NCBI GenBank assembly: GCA_963801605.1 | Contig: CAWDFP010000006.1 | Location: 992,001-1,056,000, forward strand | DNA length: 64,000 nt | From: an uncultured candidate division Zixibacteria bacterium | GTDB lineage: Bacteria > Zixibacteria > MSB-5A5 > UBA10806 | Reading direction: 5' to 3' | Translations under genes and position numbers: made by a program | Shown: piece after piece, positions 31,819-51,504 of the stretch | How the letters are laid out: every line of letters begins with the position of its first letter | Position numbering within the stretch: position 1 is the stretch's first letter | The notes under the pieces: generated by a model | The model's input: the letters and a program-made list of their open reading frames with translations, nothing else | Database searches by the model: none | Told to the model about the DNA's origin: nothing

Positions 31819-32680
31819 AATAGAATATATCGCCGTAAAAGGAATACTATTTCTGGTCAACCTCATACCCTATAGAATGGCGCTTTGTTTAGGAAACATC
31901 ATCGGCTTTCTGGCCTTTTCAGTATTTAGAATCAGACGAGAGGTAACGCTTACCAACCTAAAAAAGTCTTTTGGAGATCGTTTTACAGATCGACAATATA
32001 GAAGACTTGGTCTTCGAGCCTACAATAATATCTGTAAAAGCATGATAGAGTATGGTTTGTTTCCCTCTTTTAATAAAAATAAGCTGGAAAGAATTATCAC
32101 AATTGAGGGAGCCGAGCATTTCCAGAAAATCAAAAATGCCGGGAAAGGGGCAGTGCTGGTTACCGGGCATTTTGGTAGCTGGGAACTCATGGGAGCTTAT
32201 GTTGCCCAGCATGACTGGCCTATCGATTATTTGGTGGGAGAGCAGCATAACCTTAAAGTAAATAAAATCATGAACGATCATCGCCGTATGTTCGGCATTG
32301 GGCTTATCGAATTAGGTGTGGCGGCTCGAGGAGTTATTAAGGCTGTTCGCGAGGGGCGTATGGTTGCTATGCTTTCTGATCAGGATGCGGGAAGCGACGG
32401 AGTCATCGTAGAATTTCTGGGCCGACCCGCCTCCACGCCTAAAGGACCGGCAGCATTCTCGCTCAAAACTGGCGCGCCGCTGCTTTGTGGTGTAATTATC
32501 CGTGAAGGTTTGCGTCAGCGAATAGTTGTTGAGCCGCCGATAAATATCACGCCAAGCGTCGATAAAAATGAAGATATCAGGGCCTTAACACAAGCCTATA
32601 CCTCAATTCTTAGTAAATATATAAAGGAGTACCCCGATCATTGGTTTTGGCCGCATCGGCGCTGGAAATCAACCTCATGA
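31796..32680 (+). CDS. lipid A / lysophospholipid acyltransferase (LpxL/HtrB family)
   Basis: GHFGSWE, LSDQD, FLGRPA, WFWPHRRWK. Confidence 0.88.
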   Translation: MMKKIRYEIEYIAVKGILFLVNLIPYRMALCLGNIIGFLAFSVFRIRREVTLTNLKKSFGDRFTDRQYRRLGLRAYNNICKSMIEYGLFPSFNKNKLERIITIEGAEHFQKIKNAGKGAVLVTGHFGSWELMGAYVAQHDWPIDYLVGEQHNLKVNKIMNDHRRMFGIGLIELGVAARGVIKAVREGRMVAMLSDQDAGSDGVIVEFLGRPASTPKGPAAFSLKTGAPLLCGVIIREGLRQRIVVEPPINITPSVDKNEDIRALTQAYTSILSKYIKEYPDHWFWPHRRWKSTS

Positions 32681-35001
32681 GAGAGCACTCTCTTTTTACG
32701 GGACGGCCCGGACTGGTGGCCATTCTTCTATTTATTCTTGGTATTTTCGTCGCGCTATTTATTCAGTTTCCTTATTCAATCCCATTGACATTTCTTATCA
32801 TTACTTTTTTTGCACTTACTTATACCTATCTCAAGGGGTGGATGCGAACATCCGCCTGGATAACTGCGATTCTTATTATTATAACAGGTTGGTATCTTAC
32901 GCGGCTTTCCAGCGGCCCGTTTGCCCCCAATCATATCGAAAATCTCGCAAAAAATGGCGGGCGGGTAGAGCTGGTGGGAAGGATTATTGAAGAGCCGGAT
33001 ATCAGAAGAGATAAGACTTATTTGGTTGTCGAAGCTGATTCGATTTTTATGGGCCGAGTTTGGATTCCCACATTCGGCAGGGTACGCGCCGGCATTAAAG
33101 ATGGCGGTTCCCATTATGAGCATTCTGATATCATAAACCTTAACGGATATATCTATCAGCCCGAGGGTCCTCGAAATCCGGGCGGCTTTGACTATCGGGC
33201 TTATCTACGTAATAAGGATATTTCCGCAGCTATTTCAGTTTCGGGGCCAAATCAAGTTATTATTTTGGAAAAAGGAAGATCATTTCTTTCTGCGGTAATA
33301 TCGCCGCTCCGAACCTGGCTGGTTTCAAAAACGAGGGAGTACCTATCACCCCTATCAGCGGCGCTCCTATCCGGATTTATACTTGGCGAGCAACGTGATA
33401 TCCCCGATGAATGCCAGGAACTTTTTCGCAACACCGGAACGCTTCACCTGATGGCAGTCTCCGGATCCAACGTAGGGGTCGTACTGGCGCTCTTTGCATT
33501 CCCTTTAACGCTTTTGAAAGTGCCGCGCAAAATTAAAGTCGTTATCCTGTTTTTGGTAATACTATTCTTTGCCATCTTAACCCGGCTTCAGCCATCCGTG
33601 GTACGTGCCTCAATAATGGCGACGATTGGATTAATCGCTTATGGCTGGATACGAAAACCCGATTATATCAACCTGCTTTCATTTTCCGGACTTCTAATGC
33701 TGCTCTGGCGCCCCCTGCAATTATTCGATGTTGGAGTTCAACTTTCTTTTGCCGCCACGTTTGGCATCATATATGCGCTGCCCAAAATAAATGGCGAGCT
33801 CGCGTTTTTAAAAGGTCGAGTCGGTGGATGGTTGCGAAATTTCCTGCTTGTAGTGGCAAGCACCTTAGCGGCTCAATTGGCCGTTCTGCCGCTTATGGCT
33901 CATTATTTTCAAAATATCCCACTTTCAGGCGTTCTTGCTAATATCCCCATGATACTTTTAGCGGGCCTGGCAAGCACCCTGGGGATCGCATTTTATTTTT
34001 CGCCAATTTTAGGCGGATGGCTATCGACACTGATTTCAATTCCTCTTGGTTGGTGCCTGGATATTATTGTGATAATCCTTCGCTTTTTTGCCTCTCTGCC
34101 TTATGCCAATATCGCGGTAGCTTCGCCGGGCTGGCTCTTGATAATCATTTTTTGGCTTCTTCTATACTTTGGTTTCGAACTTTTGGCCAACCGAAGATTC
34201 AGCAAACTTACATTAATTATGGTCTTGATGGCATCCAACATTTTGATATTCAGCCAAATTTTCCAAACGCGAGACGATTGGAGATTGGAGTTTCTCGATC
34301 TGGGCAGAAACCACGCCTGGATCTATTCTAATAAAGGAGCACCAACTGTCGCCTGCTTAGATTTTTTCGTTCCACAAGAGGATGCTGCCAACGTCATCAT
34401 TCCGCACATTCTTAATCATCATGGAGGAAATCTTAATTATCTTATTACCAGCACTCCTGAAGCAAATGACGTTACTACGATAGCCACAATTTTTAATCCA
34501 AAAATAATTTCATTTTCAAAAATAGATACTATCTTAAAAGATACAGCCATAAGTGATACGGACATAGAGCCTTACAGCAGCCAAAGCAATTTTCCGGCCA
34601 ACATAAAGGTTATATGGGAAAGCTCCGATAATAAGGAAGGGCGCCAGGAGTCTCTCCCGGCGTTTGAGATCGATATAGGGAAAGGTTCGATTGTTTTGGC
34701 TGACTGGACTGGAGCGGAAATTTTGAATGGGCTTGATCAAAAGCGTGTAAGCCTTCTCGAACTGCCGTGGGGCGTCTATGCCCAATCAAGCTGCAAGAAC
34801 GCAATCGAAAAGATCGCTCCGGAGTGTGTAGTTTTCTCCCCCGACCGCTTCACTCAGGCCATGCCTCGGAAGCGGGACGAGTTGACATACTCGGCTGATC
34901 GAATTCTTTCTACATCGATCTTTGGTGGAATCTCATTTAGCAGCGTTGATAGCACTATGAGAATTGAAACCATGAAACCAATTTTCAACGAGAGGAAATA
35001 A
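32677..35001 (+). CDS. comEC: DNA internalization competence protein ComEC/Rec2
   Basis: RNPGGFDY, HLMAVSGSNV, PSVVRASIM, QLSFAAT; ATGA overlap with upstream stop. Confidence 0.9.
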   Translation: MREHSLFTGRPGLVAILLFILGIFVALFIQFPYSIPLTFLIITFFALTYTYLKGWMRTSAWITAILIIITGWYLTRLSSGPFAPNHIENLAKNGGRVELVGRIIEEPDIRRDKTYLVVEADSIFMGRVWIPTFGRVRAGIKDGGSHYEHSDIINLNGYIYQPEGPRNPGGFDYRAYLRNKDISAAISVSGPNQVIILEKGRSFLSAVISPLRTWLVSKTREYLSPLSAALLSGFILGEQRDIPDECQELFRNTGTLHLMAVSGSNVGVVLALFAFPLTLLKVPRKIKVVILFLVILFFAILTRLQPSVVRASIMATIGLIAYGWIRKPDYINLLSFSGLLMLLWRPLQLFDVGVQLSFAATFGIIYALPKINGELAFLKGRVGGWLRNFLLVVASTLAAQLAVLPLMAHYFQNIPLSGVLANIPMILLAGLASTLGIAFYFSPILGGWLSTLISIPLGWCLDIIVIILRFFASLPYANIAVASPGWLLIIIFWLLLYFGFELLANRRFSKLTLIMVLMASNILIFSQIFQTRDDWRLEFLDLGRNHAWIYSNKGAPTVACLDFFVPQEDAANVIIPHILNHHGGNLNYLITSTPEANDVTTIATIFNPKIISFSKIDTILKDTAISDTDIEPYSSQSNFPANIKVIWESSDNKEGRQESLPAFEIDIGKGSIVLADWTGAEILNGLDQKRVSLLELPWGVYAQSSCKNAIEKIAPECVVFSPDRFTQAMPRKRDELTYSADRILSTSIFGGISFSSVDSTMRIETMKPIFNERK

Positions 35002-35002
35002 A

Positions 35003-36169
35003 GTGAGTTTCGCGGGCAACCTGAAAACCGTATCTCCGGCTGATATTTTCCAGCTTATTGTCACTTCCAAAAAAACAGGTGCCCTGTCTATAGTTAAAAG
35101 CGATTCCCGCCGCTTCATTTACTTCCAGGATGGTCTTCTCACATTTGCCTCATCCTCCGACAAACAGGATATGTTCGGAAGCCTGCTGCTTAAAAAAGGA
35201 AGAATTTCCAAACCTGAGCTTGATGCCATTCTTAAAGAAAAACATGATGGCAAGAAAATCGGCCAGGTATTGGTTGAAAAAGGAATCCTAACCCGGGATG
35301 AGGTTTTCGACTGTCTCAAGATGCAGATCGATGAGATAGTCTATAGTCTTTTCGGATGGAAAGACGGCGACTTCGAATTCATCGAGGGAAAGGCGCCGCC
35401 GCCCGATGTCATTCTTACCGAGCTCAATCCCATGAATATGATCATGGAGGGGATGCGGCGTATTGATGAATGGACCGAACTAAAAAAGATTCTGCCCTCC
35501 GATGATGCCCAAATCGAGCTGGTGGTTGATCCGGTCATGAGAAACGAAGAGATGAGACTTACCAAGGATGAGTTTATCGCCCTGGCGTTGATCGGATCTG
35601 GCAAGAGATTCTCGAAAGTTGTGGAAGAAAGTTACCTGGACCAGTTCCAAACCTGCAAGGCGCTGGCTAATTTGTTACAGATGGGGCTTATCAAGGTCGG
35701 GAAAATTCTTCCGGTAATTAAAAACTCAGAGCAGGAACAGAAAAATTTAGTCGAACTATTAGCCCAGGTTTATATCAGCAATCTGGCGCTTATCTTCTCC
35801 GGATTAAAAGAAAAGCTGGGTAACAAAGGCGACCGGGTGATATTCGAGACGTTCGAAGAAAATAAAATGTTTTATCCGATCTTAAGCCAGTTTTTTACCG
35901 CTCGCGATGGTACCATTAATTTTGAGCACTTCCTTGAATTCTATAAAAGATTGCCGGAAGAGGCTCGAATCTGGCGCATTGTTTCAAATTTCAACTCCCT
36001 CCTCAACGATTACCTCGTGGCTGTCCAAAGGCATCTCGGAAATAAGATTTACCGTCGAGTGGTTTCCGAAATTAAAATAAATATCCAAAACAGTATTAAT
36101 CGCAATCGCCAATTGGCCTTAAAGTACGGGCTCGAAGAAGAATTTTCGCGAGCCTTGCGAGATAGATAA
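35003..36169 (+). CDS. DUF4388 domain protein with MshEN-like helices
   Basis: FAGNLKTVS..DIFQLI...KKTG.L, LFGWKDGDFEF, MEGMRRIDEW. Confidence 0.8.
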   Translation: MSFAGNLKTVSPADIFQLIVTSKKTGALSIVKSDSRRFIYFQDGLLTFASSSDKQDMFGSLLLKKGRISKPELDAILKEKHDGKKIGQVLVEKGILTRDEVFDCLKMQIDEIVYSLFGWKDGDFEFIEGKAPPPDVILTELNPMNMIMEGMRRIDEWTELKKILPSDDAQIELVVDPVMRNEEMRLTKDEFIALALIGSGKRFSKVVEESYLDQFQTCKALANLLQMGLIKVGKILPVIKNSEQEQKNLVELLAQVYISNLALIFSGLKEKLGNKGDRVIFETFEENKMFYPILSQFFTARDGTINFEHFLEFYKRLPEEARIWRIVSNFNSLLNDYLVAVQRHLGNKIYRRVVSEIKINIQNSINRNRQLALKYGLEEEFSRALRDR

Positions 36170-36173
36170 TTTC

Positions 36174-36539
36174 ATGAAGAAATCCTTCGTTGTTCTTATT
36201 ACCGGGCTTGTCCTGGCGGATCATGGACACGCTAATGCCATGACATCCACAGGATATGCTATACTGGGCGAGTCATTTTCGCTGGTATTGTTATTGGCCT
36301 GTCTCATTATTGCATCGCTTATTATAACGGAGCTTCGAGGCGGGAAATTTGGCCAGCCCTGGATTTTTATGGCCGCCGGATTTGCCGTTGCTCTGGCAGC
36401 CAGCGTAATCCATTTACTCGATCTGAAGGCAATTATCTTTGGCGATTATGATCTCAGGCCTATTTACCTCGCGGCCCGAACTGCTTCAATGCTTTTAATC
36501 CTGGTTGGCCTTTTTTTCTATAAGAAGGGGCTGCAATAA
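36174..36539 (+). CDS. small integral membrane protein
   Basis: Hydrophobic N-terminus plus three TM segments; tightly coupled to upstream gene. Confidence 0.6.
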   Translation: MKKSFVVLITGLVLADHGHANAMTSTGYAILGESFSLVLLLACLIIASLIITELRGGKFGQPWIFMAAGFAVALAASVIHLLDLKAIIFGDYDLRPIYLAARTASMLLILVGLFFYKKGLQ

Positions 36540-36554
36540 TCGTTTGATTGGCTC

Positions 36555-36581
36555 TAAACATCTTCGCGGCCTTGTCGATAA
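36555..36581 (+). promoter_or_regulatory. sigma28-like promoter
   Basis: TAAA-N15-GTCGATAA versus consensus TAAA-N15-GCCGATAA. Confidence 0.5.
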
Positions 36582-36614
36582 CATTATTAGTTGGTTTGAC
36601 CTGAGAGGTCCTAT

Positions 36615-37439
36615 ATGATTGATGTCATTGAAATAGACGAACGTATCGCCAAGTGCGAAAAGATTCTCGATATGAATCCGCAAAGCCAGATTTTTGCGGC
36701 TTTGGCCGATGCCTATCGCAAAAGGGGAGATTTGGCCAGAGCTCAGGAAATTTGCAATGATGGGCTGAAACTTCACCCGTCTTACGCATCGGCTCGAGTC
36801 GTCATGGCTAAAATTCAATTGGCCAGAGGGAATTATGATTTGGCCTCCGATGAACTTAAAATGGCCATCCTCTCAACCGGACGCACCAGGGCGATCGATG
36901 TTTTAGAAGCTGAGATATTAATCAGACGCGGCCAGAAAGCCGAGGCCTGCCTTATCCTCCAGGGACTCGAGGCAACTGACCCCGATGACGAAAATGTAAA
37001 GAATCTCAAAGCGCTTCTCGATGAAAAACCGAACCCGGATAAGATCGAACTGCCTGCGGATTTATCGCTTAAGCTCGAAAGAGCCGATCAAAAGAGCCTT
37101 ACGCTTGCTCATGCCTTAAGTGTTCTTAAAGTTATGCCGCGCGTTATGGGCGTGATTGCAGTTGGATCTAACGGGCTTCTCCTTGATGGCCGTTTCGACA
37201 GCCATAATGTTAAAGAGGAATTTGCGGCTCTTTCAAAAGGCTTTGTTGATTGGGCAACACAGGGAAGCCAGCGCATCGATTTCGGGGCGGTAAATGAGGT
37301 GCTGATTGAAACCACTTCGTCGAAAATCTGGATTTTCGATAAAATAAAGTATCTGCTCGTAGTTTTTACCAGAGATGATGTCAGCATGGGTGCTCTTAAA
37401 CTGAAAATAGATGATCTCTTTAGAGACATTGTTATTTGA
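36615..37439 (+). CDS. TPR protein with C-terminal roadblock/LC7 domain
   Basis: FAALADAYRKRG..A...C..GL..HP.Y TPR; C-terminal GVIAVG.NGLLL...FAALS. Confidence 0.75.
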   Translation: MIDVIEIDERIAKCEKILDMNPQSQIFAALADAYRKRGDLARAQEICNDGLKLHPSYASARVVMAKIQLARGNYDLASDELKMAILSTGRTRAIDVLEAEILIRRGQKAEACLILQGLEATDPDDENVKNLKALLDEKPNPDKIELPADLSLKLERADQKSLTLAHALSVLKVMPRVMGVIAVGSNGLLLDGRFDSHNVKEEFAALSKGFVDWATQGSQRIDFGAVNEVLIETTSSKIWIFDKIKYLLVVFTRDDVSMGALKLKIDDLFRDIVI

Positions 37440-37448
37440 GGAATCGAT

Positions 37449-37898
37449 ATGGCCCGAGCAAAAGCAGTTAAAAAAAACCAGGACAAATTTCAAATGGCTG
37501 TCAACTATTTGATCGAGTACGATGGGGTAAGGGGAGTCGCTATCGCCGATCCCGAAGGGCTGGTTATAGCTCGCGGCGGAAACGATTTCGATGCCGAGCT
37601 CCATTGTGCCCTGGCGCAGCAAATTACAGCATCCTTAGATGCTATATTGCCGAAATTAATAACTCCGGGAATCGAACATCTTATTGTCAAAACCCCGCAG
37701 GATTGGCTGACCGTGGCTCGCTCGGCAACCTTTCTTCTGATTGTGGTGGCCAAACGAAATGCCGATGAGCTTCTTAATATCCGAATCGGCAAAGCGCTTG
37801 AAATGATTTCATCTCATCTAAAAGGCAAATATCAACCGGCCTTTTCGACTGACCCATCCGGAGTCAAGGCGAAAAAAATGGAGGCTATAAATGTATGA
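37449..37898 (+). CDS. roadblock/LC7 domain protein
   Basis: GVRGVAIADPEGLVIA. Confidence 0.78.
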   Translation: MARAKAVKKNQDKFQMAVNYLIEYDGVRGVAIADPEGLVIARGGNDFDAELHCALAQQITASLDAILPKLITPGIEHLIVKTPQDWLTVARSATFLLIVVAKRNADELLNIRIGKALEMISSHLKGKYQPAFSTDPSGVKAKKMEAINV

Positions 37899-38229
37899 TG
37901 TTTTAGGCGATCTCAACAAGACCTCCGGAGTCAAAGGCTCTATGCTGGTCGGCAACGACGGTATCATTATCGCCGCAGATCTCGATGCCAAGCTCGAAGA
38001 CGAAACCGTAGGCGCGATGGCAGCTTCGATTATGACCAACATCGGCAAAGCTCTGGGTCGGCTTAAACAACATAACCTGGAAAGAGTAACCATCGAGGCT
38101 GATGCAGGAAAAATATTCCTATGCGAGGCCGGAGTTGGGATCCTGGCAGTTGTAACTGAGCCGCAGGTTAATGTCGGATTAGTCAGGTTGGAGATTAAAA
38201 ACGCCGTTTCGCAAATTAAGGGGATGTAG
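37891..38229 (+). CDS. roadblock/LC7 domain protein (MglB/MglC-like)
   Basis: GVKGSMLVGNDGIIIA, GAMAA, NVGLVRLEIK. Confidence 0.85.
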   Translation: MYDVLGDLNKTSGVKGSMLVGNDGIIIAADLDAKLEDETVGAMAASIMTNIGKALGRLKQHNLERVTIEADAGKIFLCEAGVGILAVVTEPQVNVGLVRLEIKNAVSQIKGM

Positions 38230-38242
38230 AGAGGAATTTGGG

Positions 38243-39451
38243 ATGGTATCCATTAATTACGCTTTCAGGGAGATTATCTCCAAAATAGTTTACTATGGTC
38301 CGGGCCTCTCAGGGAAGACTACTAACCTTCAGTATGTCTTTAAAAAGATTCCCAGTGAAACCCGCGGCGAGCTCATCAGCCTGGCAACTGACGCCGACAG
38401 GACTCTATATTTCGATTTTCTGCCTGTCAATGTTGGAACGATACAGGGTTTTGCCACCAAATTCCAACTCTATACGGTTCCCGGCCAGGTGTATTACAAC
38501 GCCACGCGCAAGCTTGTTCTACGGGGCGTGGATGGCTTGGTATTCGTGGCAGATAGCCAACTGGCCAAGATGGATGAGAATCTTGAATCGCTCCATAATC
38601 TAAAAGACAACCTCGAGGAATATGGGTACGATATGTGCCAGATTCCTTTGGTTATACAATACAATAAACGTGATTTACCGGATATCGTATCAATCGCCGA
38701 CCTTGAGAAAGCTCTTAACCCGGGCGGCTTGCCGTACTTTGAGGCCGTGGCCGTCACGGGCGATGGAGTGTTTAAGACACTTAAAGCCATAAGTAAAATC
38801 GTTCTGGATCAGGTAAAGGCCAAAAGAATGGAACCGGCCAAGGTTATTAAAACGCAAACGCAACCTCAACCAGCGCCCAAGGTGCCCGTGGGAGTAGCCC
38901 CGGCCGCCAGCCCGCGAGCAGTTAATAATGAAGTACTTGTTGCTCAACCAAAACCTGAGATTATTAGCCGGGGAGTCGAGGTGCCGGAATCTAAGCTAAA
39001 ATCCGATGATAAGATTGGTACCAGCCAGGTTGAATCTGCAATCATTTCCGATATACCGGGCAGAGTGGTGGTATCTGACGCGCAGGATGATAAACCGCAG
39101 CCTCATGAGGAATCAGTGCATCAGACAGCCACCGAAGAGACAACCGAAAAGGCTGTCATTCGGGATGAAGCACCAGAGCACGGTACGAAGAGCATCGTTG
39201 TTAGCCAGGATTTTGGTCTTACCAACGAATATAGCGTGGTTGACACCAAAGAAGAGGCTTCCCAGGGCAAGGGATGGCTTTCGTATAATGACAACAAATC
39301 AGTCAGCGAAGATGATAATGACGAAATAGAAGACATTAGTCTAAAAAGCGCTTTGCCGTTACGCAAACCGCAAATGGCTGAGAGCCGTAAGGTAAAGAAT
39401 AAAACAGGGAAGTTTAATATCTTCGGCTGGTTCAAGAAATCGAAAAAATAA
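38243..39451 (+). CDS. mglA: small Ras-like GTPase MglA with ~210-aa C-terminal extension
   Basis: KIVYYGPGLSGKTTNL, DRTLYFDFLP, YTVPGQVYY, DGLVFVADSQ, QYNKRDLP as in Myxococcus MglA. Confidence 0.93.
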   Translation: MVSINYAFREIISKIVYYGPGLSGKTTNLQYVFKKIPSETRGELISLATDADRTLYFDFLPVNVGTIQGFATKFQLYTVPGQVYYNATRKLVLRGVDGLVFVADSQLAKMDENLESLHNLKDNLEEYGYDMCQIPLVIQYNKRDLPDIVSIADLEKALNPGGLPYFEAVAVTGDGVFKTLKAISKIVLDQVKAKRMEPAKVIKTQTQPQPAPKVPVGVAPAASPRAVNNEVLVAQPKPEIISRGVEVPESKLKSDDKIGTSQVESAIISDIPGRVVVSDAQDDKPQPHEESVHQTATEETTEKAVIRDEAPEHGTKSIVVSQDFGLTNEYSVVDTKEEASQGKGWLSYNDNKSVSEDDNDEIEDISLKSALPLRKPQMAESRKVKNKTGKFNIFGWFKKSKK

Positions 39452-39477
39452 TACCTGGCGATAAAAGGAGGTTTAAG

Positions 39478-39963
39478 TTGTCTCAAGAACAACAGGTCCT
39501 CTATGAGGATCAAATTCAGCAGATCGATCAGGTCCTGAGCCGGATCATCAGGGAAGCGGAGGCTAAATGCGCGCTCCTGGTGGATAAGGACGGGCACCTC
39601 ATCACGCGGCAGGGGTTTACCCATACTCTCGATACCACGGCCCTGGCTGCTCTTCTGGCGGGAAGCTTCGCCTCCACGAAGGAGATTGCTCGCCTGGTTG
39701 GCGAACCGGAGTTTTCGGTTCTTTTCCATCAGGGGAAAAAAGATCATATCCATATCTCACTTATCGACGAGCGCACCATTATGGTGGTGATTTTCGACGA
39801 CCGCACCACGATCGGTATGATCAGGCTCTATGCCAAAGAAATCGGAGAGACTTTAAAAACTATTCTGTCTGGCACATCGGAAAGCAAACATGATGATCTT
39901 GAATTGGGCAAGGATTTCTCGGATAGCGCTGAAGCTAAACTCAACGATATTTTCCAGGAATAG
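39478..39963 (+). CDS. mglB: MglB GTPase-activating protein
   Basis: LVDKDGHLI, DTTALAALLAG, LVGEPEF..LFHQG, VVIFDDRTT.G..RL, acidic C-terminal helix. Confidence 0.88.
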   Translation: MSQEQQVLYEDQIQQIDQVLSRIIREAEAKCALLVDKDGHLITRQGFTHTLDTTALAALLAGSFASTKEIARLVGEPEFSVLFHQGKKDHIHISLIDERTIMVVIFDDRTTIGMIRLYAKEIGETLKTILSGTSESKHDDLELGKDFSDSAEAKLNDIFQE

Positions 39964-39970
39964 ATTCGAT

Positions 39971-39986
39971 TGGCATATTTGTGGCT
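39971..39986 (+). promoter_or_regulatory. candidate sigma54 promoter upstream of second pilB
   Basis: TGGCATATTTGTGGCT, GG-N10-GC spacing, one mismatch in the -12 box. Confidence 0.45.
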
Positions 39987-40011
39987 GTATAGAAATTAAG
40001 GATTCAGAAGA

Positions 40012-41706
40012 ATGGCAATAGAGCTCGGTAAGATACTTGTCAAAGCCGGCAAAATCACAGAAGTCCAACTTCAAAAGGCGCTGGAAATGCAAAAAAACGG
40101 CGCCGGTAAGCTGGGTGAGATCTTGGTTAAAATTGGCGCTATTACCGATGAAAATGTCATCTCGGAATTTATCGGAAAGCAGCTTAATATTGGTGCGTTA
40201 CGCTTAACCGATATTGAGCTCAATCCCGATATTGTTAAGCTTATCCCTCAGGATATCGCCCGTAAATTTAACGTTATTGCCGTTTCCAAACTTGGCAAGA
40301 CCCTGATTGTCGCCATTTCCGATCCTAATAATATTTATGTTCTCGATGCCATTAAATTTATCACCGGCTGCAATATTCAGCCGGTCATTTCGCCCGAAAA
40401 TACCATCCAGAGCGCTATCGAAACTTATTATGGTGATACCAGCGGCATCAATGAAATCATTAAGGGGATGAGCGCGAACTGGAGGTAGTCGAGGAGGCGG
40501 AAGATGACCCCATCGGAACAGGATCTGCAATCGCAGGTTCAGGATAAGCCTCTGGTGAAATTGGTCGATGGTATCATCGCCGATGCCATCAGAAAAGGCG
40601 CCTCAGATATTCATTTCGAAAGTTATGAAAAGCGCGTTCGGGTCCGTTATCGTATCGACGGCGTACTGCAGGAGATGGCTCCTATTCCGTTTAAATACCG
40701 GGCAGCCATCATTTCACGTATTAAGATTATGGCCGATCTCGATATTTCCGAGCGTCGATTACCGCAGGATGGCAGAATCAAGGTGAAGTTGGGCGAGCGC
40801 ACCATCGATCTTCGTGTTTCGGTTTTGCCAACAATTTTCGGCGAAAAGATCGTCATGAGAATTTTGGATCCCAAATCACTTATGATCGATCTGACCAAAC
40901 TTGGTTTTCCCGAGCTGGCGCTTGATAATTTTAGCAAAGCTATCAGTCTGCCTTATGGCATGATTCTGGTTACGGGGCCTACCGGATCCGGTAAAACTAC
41001 GACCCTGTATTCGGCCTTAAAGACGTTGAATACGATTGATGTTAATATTATGACTGCCGAAGATCCGGTCGAGTTCAATTTCGACGGTATTAATCAGGTA
41101 TTGGTTAGATCCGATATTGGCCTTACTTTTGCCGCCGCGCTACGCTCCTTCTTACGCCAGGACCCCGATATCATCATGGTGGGCGAGATTCGCGACGGCG
41201 AAACTGCCGATATTGCCATCAAGGCCGCCTTAACCGGTCACCTCGTATTTTCAACTCTGCATACCAATGACGCACCTTCGACCATCAACAGGCTGGTGGA
41301 TATGGGCGTACCCAGCTACCTGGTAGCGGCTTCTACAAAGTTAATCATGGCTCAAAGAATGGTGCGTAAAATCTGCACCTTCTGTAAACAGGAAGTGGCC
41401 ATTGACGCCCAAAATCGCCGATATACTTCGATTGGATACCGAAGAAACTAAATCAATGAAGCTATTCGAGGGAAAAGGCTGCAATCAATGTAATGGTACC
41501 GGGTTATTCCGGAAGAACCGGCCTTTTCGAAGTTATGCCGATATCACCGGCTATTGAAAAGATGATCGTCCTGAACGCGTCGACGGCCGAAATAAGGGCT
41601 CAGGCCATGAGCGAAGGGATGCTGACTCTTGCGTCACGCCGGGTTTGAAAAACTTCGCCTGGGGATCTCCTCGCTGGAAGAAATAGTAGCCGAGACTGCG
41701 GTATAA
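40012..41706 (+). CDS. pilB: type IVa pilus extension ATPase PilB, frameshifted near 40475-40512 and 41410-41640
   Basis: ORFs 40012-40488 and 40504-41451 plus downstream fragments (GKGCNQCNGTG, FEVMPI, EEIVAETAV*); LRSFLRQDPD. Confidence 0.88.
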
Positions 41707-41710
41707 AAAC

Positions 41711-41737
41711 TATAGTAGTTAAATTTATTGTCGATAA
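41711..41737 (+). promoter_or_regulatory. sigma28-like promoter upstream of second pilT
   Basis: TATA-N15-GTCGATAA; same -10 octamer as 36574-36581. Confidence 0.42.
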
Positions 41738-41759
41738 TAAGTAAAGAGGTATAATTGAA

Positions 41760-42891
41760 ATGGTTACACTACGCGAATTACTCGAATTGATGGTTAAGCG
41801 CCGAGCCTCCGATCTTCATCTTACGGTTGGCGCTCCACCGGTTATTAGAATAGATGGCAAGCTCGTCAGAACCGACTACGAGATATTGACGCCTGATTTA
41901 ACCAAGAAGCTGGCTTATTCGATCATGAACGAAAGGCAGCGCCAGAAATTTGAGGAAAATTCGGAGCTCGATTTGTCTTTTGGAATTGAGCATCTATCTC
42001 GTTTCCGCTGTAACGTTTTCATGCAGCGAGGCAACGTAGCGGTAGCTTTGCGTCAGATTCCGTTCAAGGTTCTGACTTTTGAGGAACTTGGGTATTCCCG
42101 ATACGATTGTTAAATTAGCCGAACTGCCTCGTGGTCTGGTTCTTGTAACAGGTCCTACGGGCTCAGGCAAATCTACAACTCTTGCGGCTCTGATGGATAA
42201 AATAAATACCGAACGGCAACTGCACATAATAACCGTAGAAGATCCAATTGAGTATCTTCACCGCCATAAATCATCGCTTGTCAATCAGCGCGAAGTCCAT
42301 TCAGATACGAAGAGCTTTGCAGCTTCGCTTAAATATGCTCTTCGCCAGGATCCCGATGTGGTTCTGATCGGAGAAATGCGCGATCTGGAAACGATGGAAG
42401 CAGCCCTGACGATTTCCGAAACGGGCCACCTGGCGTTCGCCACGTTGCATACCAACTCCACCGCCGAAGCCATTAATCGTATTGTTGACGTATTTCCTCA
42501 TACGCAGCAGGAACAAGTACGAATCCAGCTTTCCTTTGTCTTGCAGGGAATTGTTACCCAGCAGCTTATCCCCAGGGTAAACGAGGGACGAGTTCTGGCC
42601 ATGGAAGTACTGATTGCTACACCTGCCGTCCGTGCCGTCATTCGTGATGATAAGATTCATCAGATTTATTCATTGATTCAGGCCGGACATAAGTATGGTA
42701 TGAAGACCATGAACCAATCGCTACTAGAGCTTTATACGAAAAAGAAAATAACATATAGTGATGCCCTTGCCAGATCGACAAACGCCTCAGAGTTCGAGGA
42801 GATGGCGCGGCAGGGTAATCTTCGTGGCGATGCTACCAGCAGAAACTTGGATGCCACGGGTAGAAACTTAGCTGAACAGATTGAGAGGTAA
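41760..42891 (+). CDS. pilT: pilus retraction ATPase PilT, frameshift near 42092
   Basis: ORFs 41760-42113 and 42079-42891 join as FEELG-IPD; GPTGSGKS, LRQDPD, GHLAFATLH. Confidence 0.9.
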
Positions 42892-42894
42892 GGC

Positions 42895-44094
42895 ATGCCT
42901 GTCTACGATTACAAAGGCAAATCCCTCGGAGGCAAGCAGGTCCAGGGTGAACTCAAGGCCAAAAACAGAGTTGAGCTCGAGAGGCTCCTGCGCTCCAATA
43001 AGATCTTAGTAACGAGCATTTCCAAAAGGCCGTCGCAAATTAAGATTCGCTTTGGAAGCGGTATTAAGAAGATCGACATCTCACGCTTTACTCGCCAGTT
43101 TGCCACTATGATCTCAGCCGGTCTTCCTATGGTGCAGTGCCTGGAAATACTTGCAACCCAGATGGAGTCTCCCGAATTTCGAAAAATAATTAACGAGGTT
43201 AAGGAGTCTGTGCAGTCGGGCTCAACCTTATCGGAGGCTATGAGCAGGCATAAGAAAGCCTTCGACGATCTCTACGTCAATATGGTAGAGGCCGGTGAGG
43301 TCGGTGGTGCTCTCGATACCATCTTGATACGTCTCGCCTCTTACCGCGAAAAAGCCGATAGGCTGGTTCGCAAAGTAAAAGGCGCCATGGTTTATCCTGT
43401 GGTGGTTATGATCGTAGCCATAGGCGTGACATTCGCGATGTTGCGATTCATCGTACCTGTATTCGCCAAAATGTTTTCCGGATTAAATGCCGCTTTGCCG
43501 GCGCCTACTCAATTCGTATTGAATATTTCCAATTTTCTGCGGGATAACTCCCTGATTCTTCTGGCAGGAGTCGCCGGCATCATCATAGCATATAAGCTTT
43601 TTGTTAGGAAACCAAACGGCCGACTGGCGGTTGATAAATTTAAACTTCGCATGCCGCTTCTTGGAGATCTCATCAGGAAAAGTTCGGTCTCGCGTTTTAC
43701 CCGGACTCTGGCGACACTGCTTTCTTCGGGTGTTTCAATTCTGGACGCCTTAAACATCACTGCAAAAACATCGGGCAATATGGTCCTGCAAAATGCTATC
43801 AAGCAGGCCATGCTCTCTATCGCCGAAGGTGAAACGATTACCGCTCCCCTTAAGGATTCCGGAGTATTCCCGCCAATGGTAACCCAGATGATTTCGGTTG
43901 GTGAGAAGACGGGCGGAATGGATGAGATGCTGACCAAGATCGCCGACTTCTACGATGAAGAAGTCGATGCGTCAGTGGCGGCTTTGACATCAATTATCGA
44001 GCCGGTCATTATTGTATTCATGGGCGGTATGATAGGCGCTATTTTGATAGCCATGTATCTACCCATGTTCGATATCGTCGGAAAGATTAACTAG
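42895..44094 (+). CDS. pilC: type IVa pilus platform protein PilC
   Basis: FTRQFATMISAGLP, GEVGGALD, AMVYP, GEKTG, AMYLPMF. Confidence 0.93.
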   Translation: MPVYDYKGKSLGGKQVQGELKAKNRVELERLLRSNKILVTSISKRPSQIKIRFGSGIKKIDISRFTRQFATMISAGLPMVQCLEILATQMESPEFRKIINEVKESVQSGSTLSEAMSRHKKAFDDLYVNMVEAGEVGGALDTILIRLASYREKADRLVRKVKGAMVYPVVVMIVAIGVTFAMLRFIVPVFAKMFSGLNAALPAPTQFVLNISNFLRDNSLILLAGVAGIIIAYKLFVRKPNGRLAVDKFKLRMPLLGDLIRKSSVSRFTRTLATLLSSGVSILDALNITAKTSGNMVLQNAIKQAMLSIAEGETITAPLKDSGVFPPMVTQMISVGEKTGGMDEMLTKIADFYDEEVDASVAALTSIIEPVIIVFMGGMIGAILIAMYLPMFDIVGKIN

Positions 44095-44116
44095 AGGATT
44101 TCGGCCTCTTACTTAC

Positions 44117-44150
44117 AAAGGGCTTCTTTTTCCAATGAAAGAAGCCCTTT
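44117..44150. terminator. 13-bp inverted repeat between pilC and pilS
   Basis: AAAGGGCTTCTTT-N8-AAAGAAGCCCTTT. Confidence 0.6.
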
Positions 44151-44156
44151 CTTAAT

Positions 44157-45869
44157 ATGAAACTATCATCCAAATATTTCCAAATTGAGCCTATCGATAA
44201 ACGGGCCTGGTTTCTAATACTTCGCCTGATAATCCCGGCATTATTGGTCGGCTCAGGGCTGGAGTTTTTACGTCCTATCGCCTTCAATTATGCACTCCTG
44301 GTGATCTATGGTTTATTGGCAATAGTGCTGTTTATCTACACGCTCGCTACCCGAAATACTACCGGGACTTTTATCAGGTCGCTTATTATTGCCCTGATAT
44401 CGGGAGAACTGTTAATTGAAGGATTACTGGTCAATCAGGTCGGCGCCAACTTCTCGCCGTTTATTCTGTTTTTTATTATCACCATTGTCACGGCTGCCAT
44501 GTTTTTCCATCTGATCGGCTCTATCGTGGTTGCATCTCTGGCCGGGCTCCTATATTCGCTTCCGATATTTTTTAATCTATCTACAATCTATGAGGGCTTG
44601 ATTGAACCCGCGAGGTTGGCTGGAATCGGACTTTCATCGGACGAAGCTTTCTATACGGTATTCCTGCACCTTTGTTTATTCTATATCTCCGCCTTTATTG
44701 CCGGATATTTGGCGCAAAACTTGTTACTTGCTTCACGCGAATTAAGCCAGGTTCGACTTGAGACCAATGAAATTTTGGAGCAGATGCACTCCGGCCTGTT
44801 AACCATCGATGGCGAAGGCCGCATAATATATTTTAATCGGGCCGCCAGCGAAATATTGGCAGTAGATCACCTGCGTGCCAAGGGGACCTATGTTGAGGAT
44901 ATATTTCATTCCGGCCTGACCGATTTTTCTCAAAAGATATTAAATGCCCTGCAAAATGGCCGTTCTGAGATTCGCGCCGAAATAAATATCAAGCATCCAA
45001 CCAAGGGCATCATTCCCATCGGTCTGACATCATCAGTGCTGCGGGATGATGATGGGCATACTCGCGGGGTGATTGCCGTTTTCCAGGATCTGACCGAAGC
45101 TAAAAAACTCGAGGCTCGTCTTCGGGCGTCCGATAGACTGGCGGCGGTTGGACGCCTGGCCGCGGGGATCGCACACGAGATTCGAAATCCGCTGGCATCG
45201 ATTTCGGGATCGGTAGAGGTCTTGAAAGATGATCTTCATCTAACTGATGGTGATGATCTCAGACTACTCGAACTTATCCTGAAAGAGTCCTCACGTTTGA
45301 ATACCATCCTGACAGATTTTCTCAACTTCGCCCGTGTCAGCAGAGTATCATCCGGTCAGTGCAATCTATCGTCGGCAATCCTTGAAGTCGTGGCGCTCGC
45401 GTCGGCGCATCAACAACCGGGCCAGAAGATTTGCATTACCCAGGAAATTCATCGTCCTAACATCTTCATTCAGGGAGGCGAGGATCAGATCAAGCAGATT
45501 CTCTGGAATTTAATTCTAAACGCATTTCAGGCTCTCAATGAAAACGGCGGCGAAATCTGCGTGGCCACCCGCGAATTGCGCTCCCATGAGGGTTCTCCAA
45601 TAGTGCGCCTGGAAGTAGCCGACAACGGCCCCGGGATACCTTCCGATCTTAAAGAAAAGATTTTCGAACCCTTCTTCTCGACAAAAGATGACGGCACCGG
45701 CCTGGGATTGCCAATGGTAGGACGAATCGTCGATTGCCTGGGCGGGCGAGTCGAGTTAGAATCGTCGCCTCTATGGAAAACAATATTCGCAATTTATCTC
45801 CCCGTGACAACCGGCAACATATCGAGCCAGGAAACGGCTCAACAAGAAGTATCAGCTTTAATAAACTGA
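44157..45869 (+). CDS. pilS: PilS-like membrane PAS histidine kinase
   Basis: About six TM helices, PAS, AHEIRNPL, DNGPGI, FEPFFSTK, GTGLGL; follows pilBTC. Confidence 0.8.
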   Translation: MKLSSKYFQIEPIDKRAWFLILRLIIPALLVGSGLEFLRPIAFNYALLVIYGLLAIVLFIYTLATRNTTGTFIRSLIIALISGELLIEGLLVNQVGANFSPFILFFIITIVTAAMFFHLIGSIVVASLAGLLYSLPIFFNLSTIYEGLIEPARLAGIGLSSDEAFYTVFLHLCLFYISAFIAGYLAQNLLLASRELSQVRLETNEILEQMHSGLLTIDGEGRIIYFNRAASEILAVDHLRAKGTYVEDIFHSGLTDFSQKILNALQNGRSEIRAEINIKHPTKGIIPIGLTSSVLRDDDGHTRGVIAVFQDLTEAKKLEARLRASDRLAAVGRLAAGIAHEIRNPLASISGSVEVLKDDLHLTDGDDLRLLELILKESSRLNTILTDFLNFARVSRVSSGQCNLSSAILEVVALASAHQQPGQKICITQEIHRPNIFIQGGEDQIKQILWNLILNAFQALNENGGEICVATRELRSHEGSPIVRLEVADNGPGIPSDLKEKIFEPFFSTKDDGTGLGLPMVGRIVDCLGGRVELESSPLWKTIFAIYLPVTTGNISSQETAQQEVSALIN

Positions 45870-47908: not shown

Positions 47909-48536
47909 ATGGCCAAAGACTTAACCGCCCGGCAGACGGGAAATATTCGAATTCATCAAGAATATGATCCGCAGTAAAGGCCGTCCGCCATCCATACGAG
48001 AGATCGGCGAAAGCTTTAAGATTCATTCTACAAACGGTGTTCGCGCTGTGCTGGAGGCTCTGGAACGCAAGGGGTATATCAAACGTGACCGCTACACCTC
48101 GCGCGGCATAGAGCTTCTCAAGGAGGCTCTCGATCAGACCATCTCCGATCGCCTTCGGGAAGTACCCTGGGTAGGCCGGGTGGCCGCCGGTACCCCTATT
48201 TGGGCGGAGCAGAATATCGAGGGCAGCTTTTTGTTGGATCGCGATTTTGTGCCCGGTGAGGAGGTATTCTCGCTCAAGGTGCGCGGCGATTCGATGATCG
48301 ATGCCGGTATTTTCGACGGCGATTATGTGCTGGTCAAACGTCAGGATATGGCCAACGCCGGTGATGTGGTGGTGGCACAAATCGGCGACGAGGCTACGGT
48401 CAAAAAGTTCTTTCCGGAGCGGCTGCGTATTCGTCTGGAGCCTGCCAATTCCGACTATGGTCCGATCGTGGTGGAGAGAAACACACCCGGTTTTGCCATT
48501 GCGGGCAAGGTAATTGGGCTGTTAAGGAAGATGTGA
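47909..48536 (+). CDS. lexA: SOS repressor LexA, frameshift near 47936
   Basis: MAKDLTARQ then REIFEFIK..GRPPSIREIG; VAAG cleavage site, GDSM Ser, TVKK Lys. Confidence 0.93.
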
Positions 48537-48541
48537 TAACC

Positions 48542-48682
48542 GTAGGTCAGGCGCCCTGGCGCCTGACATTGCGTGTCACAATTTATTGTGACCGCAAATA
48601 TTGCCTCAGGATGTGCCCCGATTCATGATCGGAGTATCCTGAGGCATAAAAACAATGTGTTTGGGGCACGACAACCGTACCC
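48542..48682. repeat. cluster of REP-like palindromes
   Basis: GTAG+GTCAGGCGCC-CT-GGCGCCTGAC (48542-67); GTCACAAT-TT-ATTGTGAC (48575-92); TGCCTCAGGAT...ATCCTGAGGCA (48602-46). Confidence 0.6.
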
Positions 48683-48704
48683 CATGGAAATAAATATCAT
48701 TCCC

Positions 48705-48953
48705 ATGTACCAGGACATCGAAGAATCAGTTGACGTAATCGCCGTCTTTGAATCGGGACGGCTGCAGCCGATCAAGTTCCGCTGGAAAGGCCGCTCGATC
48801 AAGATTAAGCAGATCACCGGTTCCTGGAAATCGGATGTCGGCGCCCACAAGATACGTTTTTATGCGGTGCTCGATAGTGCCTCCAACTTTTTCCAACTCG
48901 CTTACGATGAGAAGAACACAGCCTGGGTACTCAATAAAATATGGGTGGAGTAA
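48705..48953 (+). CDS. small beta-rich protein, DUF6504-like
   Basis: P.KFRWKGR..KI..I...W....FQL.YD.....W.L.KIW pattern; between lexA and Y-family polymerase; start could be 48684. Confidence 0.6.
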   Translation: MYQDIEESVDVIAVFESGRLQPIKFRWKGRSIKIKQITGSWKSDVGAHKIRFYAVLDSASNFFQLAYDEKNTAWVLNKIWVE

Positions 48954-48964
48954 TAGAAAATAGT

Positions 48965-48993
48965 GATGGCACACGAGGACGTGCGCCATCCAC
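48965..48993 (-). repeat. REP-like palindrome
   Basis: Minus strand reads GTG-GATGGCGCACG-TCCT-CGTGTGCCATC. Confidence 0.5.
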
Positions 48994-48997
48994 GGGC

Positions 48998-50191
48998 ATG
49001 TTGGATTGGGGCAACAGCCCGGTCATCATGCATCTCGATATGGATGCTTTCTTCGCCGCAATCGAGCAGACCATCCATCCCAGTCTCAGGGGCAAGCCGG
49101 TAATTGTGGGGGGAGACCCCGATTCGCGCGGCGTGGTCTCCACCTGTTCTTACGAAGCCAGAAATTACGGAGTCCACTCTGCGATGCCGATGAAAGAGGC
49201 ATACAGGCTTTGTCCCGATGCGGTCTATGTCAATACATCTGGCGACAAATACTCCTATATGTCGGCCCAGGTAGTATCGATCATGAGACGATATTCACCG
49301 TCGATTGAACCTGTCTCTATCGATGAAGCTTTCGCTGATATCACCGGTATATACAAACGTTACGGCGGACCTGAACAGGTTGCCAGAGCTATCAAAAAAG
49401 ATATATTAGATGAGATCAATCTAACCTGTTCTATCGGAATCGGACCGAATAGATCAGTAGCCAAGATCGCCTCAGGTTCAAATAAACCGGATGGGTTGGT
49501 GATAATTCCGCCGGCTGATGTGAAACAATTTCTCTGGGTGAGGCCTGTCGATCATCTCTGGGGTGTGGGAAAGAAATCTGCCGAGGCTCTTGGCAGAATC
49601 GGAATCAAAACAATCGGCGATCTGGCGCAGACTCCGGAGAAAACCTTAAAGACGATGTTTGGTATCATGGGGCCGGGCCTGGTGCGTATGGCCAACGGCG
49701 AGGGTGAAACTGATGTCAGAGCCAGCCATATCGAGTACGAAGCAAAATCGATGGGGCATGAGCATACGTTCGATAAAGACACTAACGACCAGGAAAAAGT
49801 ATTAGGTCTTCTTTTGTATCTGTCAGACCGGGTTTCCCGTCGGCTCAGGCAGTCCGGATGTATTGCTCGAACGGTGACCCTGAAAGTTAGAAGATCAGAT
49901 TTCAAACTTCTCACCAGGGCAAAATCCCTCAATGTCTATATCGATACTGAAAAAGATATATTCCGCGCTGCCCGCAAGCTGTTGCTTGACAACCGCTTTC
50001 TCGATGAGCCTATCAGGCTGATTGGAGTCAACGTTTCAAATCTGAAAAATAACGGAGGCGAGACATTTGACGATTACTTAATTGATTACGATCCCCTGAA
50101 GAAACGCAGGCAGCTCGATAAAGTCCTGGATAACCTCAGGGACAAACATGGGGAAGAGTCAATCTTTTTTGCCGCTTCGCAGATATTTTAG
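48998..50191 (+). CDS. dinB: Y-family DNA polymerase (Pol IV/DinB-like)
   Basis: HLDMDAFFA, SYEARNYGV, SIDEAF, AKIAS..NKPDG, LWGVGKK. Confidence 0.92.
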   Translation: MLDWGNSPVIMHLDMDAFFAAIEQTIHPSLRGKPVIVGGDPDSRGVVSTCSYEARNYGVHSAMPMKEAYRLCPDAVYVNTSGDKYSYMSAQVVSIMRRYSPSIEPVSIDEAFADITGIYKRYGGPEQVARAIKKDILDEINLTCSIGIGPNRSVAKIASGSNKPDGLVIIPPADVKQFLWVRPVDHLWGVGKKSAEALGRIGIKTIGDLAQTPEKTLKTMFGIMGPGLVRMANGEGETDVRASHIEYEAKSMGHEHTFDKDTNDQEKVLGLLLYLSDRVSRRLRQSGCIARTVTLKVRRSDFKLLTRAKSLNVYIDTEKDIFRAARKLLLDNRFLDEPIRLIGVNVSNLKNNGGETFDDYLIDYDPLKKRRQLDKVLDNLRDKHGEESIFFAASQIF

Positions 50192-50291: not shown

Positions 50292-51504
50292 ATGTCGGAT
50301 ATTCTGGAACACGTGGGGCAACTTGTGGACCGTTGGCAATTTTCAAACAGAGCTAGAGCACAGAAAAGTTCTATTATCAGAGAGATCCTCAAGGATTCCT
50401 CCAAGCCTGGCGTAATCAACCTCGCAGGTGGACTTCCCGCTCCCGAGCTATTCCCGGTTGAGGCCATCAAGCAAGCCTGCATTCGAGTGCTCGACAAGTA
50501 TGGACCCGATTCTCTCCAGTATTCTCTCACAACAGGTGTGCCGCTTTTAAAGAAATTTTTGGCAGATCGAATCAGCGCCAGCGGCCTGGAGTTTTCTCCC
50601 GATTCTATCCAGATTACTGGGCGGCTCTCAGCAAGGCCTCGATATCGTCGGAAGAGTATTTATCAATCCCGGCTCCGTAGTTCTTACCGAAGAGCCTACT
50701 TATCTGGGAGCGCTTCAAGCATTCTCATTCTACGATGCTAATTTTGTTTCGGTTAAGACCGATGAAAACGGCATTATCCCCTCCGATCTCGAATACAAAA
50801 TCAAGGAGTTTAATCCAGTTTTTGTATACCTGGTGCCGAATTTCCAAAACCCATCAGGGGTTACCCTTTCAGCGGAGCGTCGCGAGGCGGTAATTGCCCT
50901 GGCAAAAAAATATGATGTTCCTATTATTGACGACAACCCCTATGGGGAGCTTCGTTTCTTTGGGCAGCCCGTGCCATCTCTTAAGGCTTTGGGCGGCCAG
51001 CATGTCATCCAGCTCGGGACATTTTCCAAGATCATTTCGCCCGGCCTTCGCATTGCCTGGATTGCCGCCGACAAAGAGTTTATCAGAATGTGCGAACTAA
51101 TGAAACAAGCTTGCGATTTGCACACCACCACATTCTCACAATATGTCGTATATGAGTTTGCCAAGGATGGCGCCTTAGAGGACTATATCGAGGTCCTGAA
51201 AAAGGCTTACAGGCGCCGCCGCGATGTGATGATCGAGACGCTTTCCCGCGAGCTAAAAAATCGGGCCACCTGGTCGGAGCCTGAGGGCGGGCTTTTCCTC
51301 TGGGTTAAGCTGCCTGACGGGATCTCGTCCTCCGAGCTTTTACCCAAAGCCATTAGTTCCGGATTTGCCTACGTGCCCGGTAAATATTTCTATAGTCAAA
51401 AACCTGACGATACGACCTTGCGCCTGAATTTCTGTAATGCCAGCGAGGAAAATATTGTCGAAGGCATAAAGCGTCTGGCCGCCGTGGTCAAGGCAGCAAT
51501 GTAG
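50292..51504 (+). CDS. class I/II PLP aminotransferase (LysN-like), frameshift near 50620
   Basis: INLAGGLPAPELFP, ITG-GSQQGLD, PNFQNPSG, DNPYGEL, GTFSKIISPGLR. Confidence 0.85.

Follow-up and report, generated by a model that had tools for sequence, protein, structure and literature searches.

An expanded MglA/MglB gene block beside the type IVa pilus motor genes of Zixiibacteriota, with a long-tailed MglA that is likely membrane-anchored

A 64,000-bp stretch of DNA (the window) from an uncultured Zixibacteria bacterium (GCA_963801605.1, contig CAWDFP010000006.1, positions 992,001 to 1,056,000; source genome G000, 87% complete) was analysed by computational methods. The window carries eleven genes on the + strand in the order PATAN (DUF4388)-small membrane protein-TPR/roadblock fusion-roadblock RB2-roadblock RB3-mglA-mglB-pilB-pilT-pilC-pilS, and the first seven form a module around the small GTPase MglA. 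The reading favoured here, at a probability of about 0.6, is that the module encodes an expanded MglA/MglB switch that determines the site of action of the neighbouring type IVa pilus motor (PilB/PilT/PilC), with MglA tethered to the inner membrane through a long linker that ends in a basic-aromatic segment. The gene order, the domains, the group-1 motifs of MglA, its tail, the membrane fusion of RB2 in most families and a clean absence of the module in one family (f3) were all observed.

Conservation and natural deletion of the seven-gene module

The gaps between the eleven genes ranged from -8 to 75 bases, and a single base separated the end of comEC from the start of the PATAN gene. An initial annotation of the window had described this co-oriented run from DUF4388 to pilS, with mglB after mglA, and every gene was found in that order; its word "fused" for the junction with the pil cluster does not hold, as the genes are adjacent and no protein fusion exists. 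The four roadblock domains that it had placed around one GTPase were also recovered. Three passed the Pfam cut-off, and the fourth, in the TPR protein, was weak alone (E 0.003) and matched solved roadblocks at E 4e-12 when its family profile was used. The sole DUF4388 match of the genome and its sole cut-off-passing roadblock matches all lay within the block. A promoter and terminator scan of the locus gave counts as in shuffled sequences (32 vs 28.1 and 23 vs 18.6).

The named loci closest to the block belonged to Zixiibacteriota. Three sets of loci (80 named, 37 handle and 80 metagenome loci) were compared; the sets overlap, were picked by module queries and contain kin, so that their counts are not independent. 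Among the named loci, every adjacency that could be tested between PATAN and pilB held (70/70, 75/75, 80/80, 80/80, 80/80, and 80/80), and mglB lay immediately 5' of pilB in 80/80. The order mglA-mglB-pilB was found in 35/35, 80/80, and 44/44 loci of the three sets, and the handle and metagenome loci gave the same picture as the named ones. The pilB-pilT adjacency held in 68 of 72 named loci and was broken in 4. An MglA match was present in 243 of the 251 genomes of the phylum and in 195 of the 198 high-quality ones, nearly always as a single match. The neighbourhood conservation that the initial annotation had proposed as a check was thus borne out, and the module is a core block of Zixiibacteriota, locked to pilB-pilT-pilC-pilS across the phylum.

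Genome searches of family f3 (G024, 96% complete; G033, 88%) gave no match to MglA, roadblock or DUF4388. In both genomes about 290 bases separated comEC from pilB, the genes pilB, pilT, pilC, and pilS were all intact, and no trace of the module remained (L190:10048-14720 and L191:9745-13910). The absent gene set was exactly the seven from PATAN through mglB, and the PilQ orthologue was retained. Because comEC and the motor genes persist in f3 in the absence of the seven genes, the module is a separable, optional regulator and not a part of the motor. Three other MglA-negative genomes were checked; in two of them mglB-pilB lay close to the end of a contig, and the third had no comEC or orthologous pilC match either, so these absences look like assembly gaps.

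The position of comEC, which encodes a DNA uptake channel, bears on a different function, namely that the switch gates DNA-uptake pili and couples their extension to ComEC in time or place instead of steering movement. The one-base spacing and the location of comEC directly 5' of PATAN in 34/34 handle, 57/63 named, and 27/44 metagenome testable loci fit this function, which is nevertheless quite unlikely: f3 lacks the module but still has comEC next to the motor genes, comEC was not adjacent in 17/44 metagenome loci, and the characterised group-1 MglA acts on pilus position and motility (PMC7519303).

The MglA tail and the roadblock proteins

MglA was analysed in 95 distinct full-length copies from the phylum. 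The Arg finger beside the G2 Thr and the G3 motif TVPGQ were present in 95/95, the G1 P-loop in 94/95 and the G4 motif NKRD in 90/95. According to the group-1 criteria of PMC4316618 (intrinsic Arg finger, TVPGQ), these motifs class the protein as a true group-1 MglA; with the match of MglB and the assignment of the loci to Zixiibacteriota, they uphold the claim of an MglA/MglB pair in a non-myxobacterial host.

The copies were 311-511 residues long (median 364), outside the 150-240 residues of a single small G domain, and the copy of the source genome had 402 residues, not about 195. The added tail, which the initial annotation had not mentioned, is the feature of the block that stands out most. 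A read-through artefact was ruled out, as all 95 copies were long. The longest open frame with an MglA match among those listed for the phylum had 661 residues (G166:C165:65373). The linker was rich in Pro, Glu, Ala, and Ser, the tails did not align between copies, and the structural model had no secondary structure beyond residue 196. A tail criterion required the last 20 residues to have two Phe/Trp and a net charge no lower than +3. It applied to 93 of the 95 copies and to 46 of 47 metagenome copies, whereas nine control families had 0-1 such cases and the linker windows 1 of 639; the last 20 residues had a median net charge of +8 and three Phe/Trp. The trait of a MinD-type targeting sequence, a short basic and hydrophobic C-terminal segment, fits 93/95 copies, and we take the tail end to resemble the membrane-targeting sequence of MinD. 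MinD-like ATPases use a C-terminal amphipathic helix (PMC11407121). The end of the MglA tail is likely an inner-membrane anchor.

Long MglA proteins were also found beyond the phylum. Among the best 150 representatives of 50%-identity clusters related to the G domain, 149 exceeded 240 residues, a count in which long forms are over-represented because variable tails split clusters. Sorted by pattern, the C-terminal ends comprised 48 Zixibacteria-like ends, 19 hydrophobic helices, 42 with a beta-strand motif, 40 others, and 1 short. A FastTree tree was built from 121 of the 150 and 8 Zixibacteria rows, with 29 rows excluded (anchor pattern missed or aberrant). In this tree, 14 of the 48 Zixibacteria-like ends lay inside the Zixibacteria clade and 34 outside, and a single clade of 20 contained 17 helix-ended rows. 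When one helix-ended member was used as query, 120 relatives were listed, and the 10 with an organism name were Planctomycetota. In this clade a terminal transmembrane helix followed a Pro-rich linker in 110 of 115 full-length relatives, with none in the G domain (5 short ones skipped; P0222, P0275-P0392). Two different hydrophobic ends occur on the same tether, which is the best indirect support for the end being a membrane anchor. The 42 representatives with a conserved beta-strand motif at the end (P0151, P0157, P0171, and others) make up a third type of long MglA.

MglB aligned with the Myxococcus xanthus protein over its full length to the last residue, C-terminal helix included. The Asp three residues before the invariant Gly (D36/G39), typical of the coupled clade, was present as DKDG in 90 of 92 copies, and the last 20 residues had a median net charge of -5; by these signatures it is classed as a true MglB of the coupled clade. 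For RB3, the MglC or MglB_orphan1-type Asp directly before the invariant Gly (D26/G27) was found in 92/93, with a mean column identity of 58%. MglC binds MglB and RomR and is not known to have GTPase-activating protein (GAP) activity. The RB3 profile matched solved MglC (7ct3) at E 0.58, ranking 36 of 39 after archaeal-type roadblocks, MglB, and LAMTOR2; its best solved matches were the roadblock proteins 7yh1 and 7f8m. A search for longer RB3 forms gave 2 matches, which is weak evidence. Both signatures were defined in PMC4719450, which also reported that at seven loci mglA is accompanied by two such genes, one of the MglB type and one of the MglC type.

RB2, with the signature D-x-E-G, was 133-171 residues long in 22/22 loci of families f1 and f2, which belong to the same taxonomic order as the source genome, and 296-345 residues in 12/12 called loci of other families. 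The long form had an N-terminal multi-pass membrane domain, with at least two predicted membrane segments in 61/63. In the TPR-roadblock family the consensus was DG, but the copy of the source genome had NG. A quick roadblock tree placed MglB, RB3, and RB2 each in one group, while the fast-evolving TPR-fused domain had no resolved place. By profile comparison the three extra roadblocks were closer to one another than to MglB. The small membrane protein had three predicted hydrophobic segments and a conserved GG-x-x-x-x-W motif; it was present by pattern in 64/70 loci, with a variant in five of the six misses, and no Pfam family was common to any two members of its alignment.

These features also permit a stronger proposal, namely a bacterial platform with a small GTPase docked at the membrane, built much as in eukaryotes. 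In it MglA would sit on a variable Ras/Rab-style tether with its own anchor, the three extra roadblocks would form a Ragulator-like heteromer that RB2 and the small membrane protein keep at the membrane, and PATAN would be a direct, GTP-dependent activator of PilB. This proposal is tentative and has a low probability. The block shares with eukaryotic Ragulator-Rag and Rab/Ras targeting the four roadblock domains, a small GTPase with a (here putative) membrane attachment and a variable C-terminal tether. The likeness is a design analogy only: the GTPase here is of the MglA family and has no lipid modification, and the pairing of its roadblocks is putative.

Link to the pilus motor and alternative readings

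The PATAN protein scored 38.2 bits against NF053729 (cut-off 38), and its model had a predicted local distance difference test score of 81. In a fold search its alpha-clip insert matched the N-domain of MshE (5htl) with Z 8.6 over 59 residues at a root-mean-square deviation of 2.9. No clear match was found for the C-terminal helical domain, which was not predicted alone (best Z 6.6). The RLG consensus of the first c-di-GMP-binding motif of MshEN was applied to the PATAN insert and the PilB N-terminus; its Arg was present in 6/87 PATAN and 0/89 PilB copies, and the pattern did not fit in 12 and 28, respectively. Because this Arg was mostly missing, c-di-GMP sensing was rejected as an established feature of PATAN, and binding of c-di-GMP is doubtful. 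A DUF4388 domain (IPR025497) with an alpha-clip insert defines PATAN, and in Synechocystis PATAN domains bind the N-terminus of PilB1 and PilC; the same authors remarked on MglA/MglB genes near PATAN genes (bioRxiv 2021.06.11.447907).

The initial annotation had proposed the TPR-roadblock protein as the adaptor. In M. xanthus, MglA-GTP drives the localisation of PilB through a TPR protein, SgmX, of about 1,060 residues with five N-terminal and three C-terminal TPRs (PMC7519303). Orthology to SgmX was rejected, as the present protein has 274 residues with one TPR block followed by a roadblock; by analogy it may still act like SgmX, while PATAN, with its precedent of binding PilB, appears the better-supported motor adaptor. 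Similar TPR-roadblock fusion clusters in Gemmatimonadota and Methylomirabilota were seen in the ESM Atlas (a lead only), and in homologue searches with the TPR-roadblock profile Zixibacteria-like proteins and loci filled the matches listed.

Under the favoured reading, the tail end would bind anionic lipids as the targeting sequence of MinD would, giving MglA its own anchor. MglB would act as GAP, and possibly also as guanine nucleotide exchange factor (GEF) through its acidic C-terminal helix, as in M. xanthus, where this helix confers GEF activity and is needed for polarity (PMC6785124). By pairing, the three extra roadblocks would build a scaffold by which MglA and MglB are placed or modulated; RB3 would play the part of MglC, and membrane attachment would come from RB2 together with the small membrane protein. 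The N-terminus of PilB, or PilC, would be informed of the GTP state by PATAN and secondarily by the TPR domain. The output would be a polar or otherwise local site of piliation and not a fast, Frz-driven oscillation.

A full oscillator of the Myxococcus type, in which MglA, MglB, an MglC equivalent and a RomR-like protein switch the piliated pole and so reverse twitching movement, is unlikely. The retained C-terminal helix of MglB and the MglC Asp-Gly signature of RB3 agree with it. So does a RomR-like pseudo-receiver protein (REC, unstructured linker, helical C-terminal domain) encoded 50 kb from the block (C6:976990-978066; L151:4991-6067), after a rhomboid-like gene; its linker holds conserved acidic aromatic motifs. 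This protein was detected in 34 of 41 relatives at E 1e-28 and in one more as a split match, and was not found in f3 (G024, G033), G031, G040, G036, and G039. The two f3 genomes without the module therefore lack this protein as well, which makes "self-contained", a term of the initial annotation, too strong. However, its terminal helix has no conserved Trp or Pro and a Gly stands at the usual phospho-Asp position, while RomR has a phosphorylatable Asp and a Glu-rich RomR-C with invariant Trp and Pro (PMC3441718); orthology to RomR was therefore rejected. RomR-like candidates in G033, G031, and G040 were instead CpaE-like or OmpR-type regulators. The chemosensory marker CheW was matched in 80 of 121 genomes of the phylum, which agrees with an oscillator, but not in the 87% complete source genome nor in 41/121, though nearly all of these genomes carry the module; the term "pole-switching", under which the initial annotation had put this reading, is accordingly not retained. 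A tethered MglA would presumably relocate more slowly than a soluble one, and MglA/MglB/RomR without Frz has been proposed to give fixed polarity (Keilberg 2012). RomRX was reported as an effector rather than a GEF (PMC13408092, 2026), so a missing RomRX GEF is no obstacle to cycling.

Least probable is that the module serves another target (the division site, cell shape, secretion or a second pilus system) and stands beside pilB through inherited order. Tail ends of the MinD-like kind typify proteins by which the membrane is patterned for other cargo (PMC11407121), PatA-type PATAN proteins have non-pilus roles too (bioRxiv 2021.06.11.447907), and the finding that pilB-pilT is sometimes broken and mglB-pilB never speaks for linkage, not for a target. 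On the other side, the mglB-pilB linkage was unbroken in every sampled family, and both the PATAN and the TPR partners have pilus-motor precedents.

Several points weigh against positioning of the motor by a tethered MglA/MglB switch. The tail criterion was defined only after the tails had been inspected, the hydrophobic moment of the tail end was not above that of control C-termini (0.46 vs 0.45-0.74), the MglA model had no terminal helix, and the basic end could instead bind the acidic helix of MglB or DNA. Family f3 consists of just two genomes of one genus, at 96% and 88% completeness. Gene adjacency can persist after function is lost. A second, self-contained cluster at 1104-21174 of the window, pilus or type II secretion-like, contains a pilin, pilT, minor pilins, three pilX-like genes, pilM-N-O-P, a secretin, large adhesin-like proteins, pilB, and pilC; with this second pilB/pilC/pilT set present, we infer from adjacency which pilus the module serves.

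Locus features and comparison with known systems

The coordinates of the features are given in Table 1. In comparison with close relatives, pilB had about five small indels and pilT one, and neither was a single open reading frame in the window. The in-frame pieces were 93-95% identical to close relatives, pilB was intact (at least 555 residues) in 65/68 named loci, and 7 of 46 testable genes were broken in the source assembly. The indels are very probably assembly errors, the alternative being recent loss. Other split genes were an aminotransferase (50292-51504) and, by eye, an apparent aroA-like gene (54285-55485).

Table 1. Features of the MglA/MglB-pil locus, with positions in the window
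Feature	Position	Strand	Evidence
comEC (DNA uptake channel), upstream neighbour outside the deletable module	32641..35001	+	Pfam Competence + DUF4131
PATAN (DUF4388) protein: MshEN-like alpha-clip (aa 55-113), winged-helix-like part, helical C-terminal domain; likely PilB/PilC adaptor	35003..36169	+	PF14332 E 2e-32
Small membrane protein, 121 aa	36174..36539	+	Hydropathy, alignment; no Pfam family
TPR (aa ~8-135)-linker-roadblock (aa ~160-274) fusion, 274 aa	36615..37439	+	TPR_19 E 2e-12; roadblock E 0.003
Roadblock RB2, soluble in this locus	37449..37898	+	Roadblock domain above Pfam cut-off
Roadblock RB3, most conserved of the extra roadblocks	37891..38229	+	PF03259 E 2.5e-14
mglA, whole gene, 402 aa	38243..39451	+	
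MglA G domain, group 1, aa 1-196	38243..38830	+	E 1e-78 to M. xanthus MglA
MglA tail: ~180-aa Pro/Glu/Ala/Ser-rich disordered linker and basic-aromatic C-terminal end, likely membrane anchor	38831..39451	+	Composition, model
MglB, coupled-clade predicted GAP, acidic C-terminal helix region	39478..39963	+	E 2e-32 to M. xanthus MglB
pilB extension ATPase, MshEN-type N-terminus; several single-base indels in assembly	40012..41706	+	Domain searches
pilT retraction ATPase; one frameshift near 42088	41760..42891	+	TIGR01420 on both pieces
pilC platform protein	42895..44094	+	PF00482; NF052606 512 bits, below cut-off 700
PilS-like membrane PAS histidine kinase	44157..45869	+	PAS, HisKA, HATPase_c; name from position and architecture

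Downstream of the pilS-like kinase lay a gene for a membrane TPR protein, and pilR was not next. In loci of this taxonomic order, lexA, DUF6504, and dinB follow pilS in a row (47964-50191), resembling an SOS mutagenesis cassette. Elsewhere, pilM-N-O and a secretin were found on C7, and the genome also has minor pilins and three pilin genes in tandem. The PilQ secretin was encoded by two genes, a 367-residue periplasmic part and a 467-residue secretin (L152:5990-8511), and f3 also had a short secretin frame. The three tandem genes, which encode major pilins, were similar to one another and were followed by genes for a probable prepilin peptidase and for a second PAS kinase (L153:9016-10430).

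To our knowledge, the MglA proteins studied so far are short and recruited by partners. With the M. xanthus system (MglA, MglB, MglC, RomR-RomX, RomY, and SgmX) the block shares a group-1 MglA, the MglB C-terminal helix, a roadblock with the MglC Asp-Gly, a TPR protein and a link to PilB. It differs from it in that MglA has a tail of 120-310 residues with a basic-aromatic end, the order is mglA-mglB instead of mglBA with everything in one block with pilB-pilT-pilC, three extra roadblocks are present (one TPR-fused and one usually membrane-fused), PATAN and the membrane protein are included, no TPR protein has the size of SgmX, and CheW was not found in the source genome. The Synechocystis PATAN regulators PixE, PixG, and LsiR share DUF4388 with the alpha-clip and the proposed output on the PilB N-terminus and PilC, whereas the present protein has a helical C-terminal domain in place of REC and its input is likely the GTPase and not photoreceptors.

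The group-1 table of Wuichet and Sogaard-Andersen (PMC4316618; 112 rows, a set without Zixibacteria and without columns for pil genes or tails) holds precedents for single parts: PATAN beside mglA in Chloroflexus, Syntrophobacter, Gemmatimonas, and others; two mglB beside one mglA (Chloroflexi); long group-1 GTPases of 270-433 residues in Geobacter, Anaeromyxobacter, and Myxococcales; and one mglA-before-mglB case with a 313-residue MglA (Fibrobacter Fisuc_0226). None of its 112 rows has four roadblock domains. A literature search gave no description of the block or of a tethered MglA within a coverage that mostly excluded subscription journals. The parts thus have precedents in group-1 neighbourhoods, but the whole assembly apparently does not, and the expansion is apparently undescribed. 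Tethers that bind small GTPases to membranes by their C-terminus have been described, for Rab, as having arisen with eukaryotes (PMC10933270).

The block addresses two open points, namely the route from MglA-GTP to the pilus motor outside Myxococcales and the way in which bacterial small GTPases find membranes. It offers one conserved block as a candidate parts list, with borders marked by a lineage of natural deletion and with parts that can be purified without culturing the host. A class of bacterial GTPases with two different tail anchors, if true, would mean that the tether design also arose in bacteria. If the platform proposal is true as well, tethered MglA would be a widespread class, with a basic-aromatic end in Zixibacteria and other clades and a transmembrane helix in Planctomycetota, and the soluble Myxococcus protein would be one form of it.

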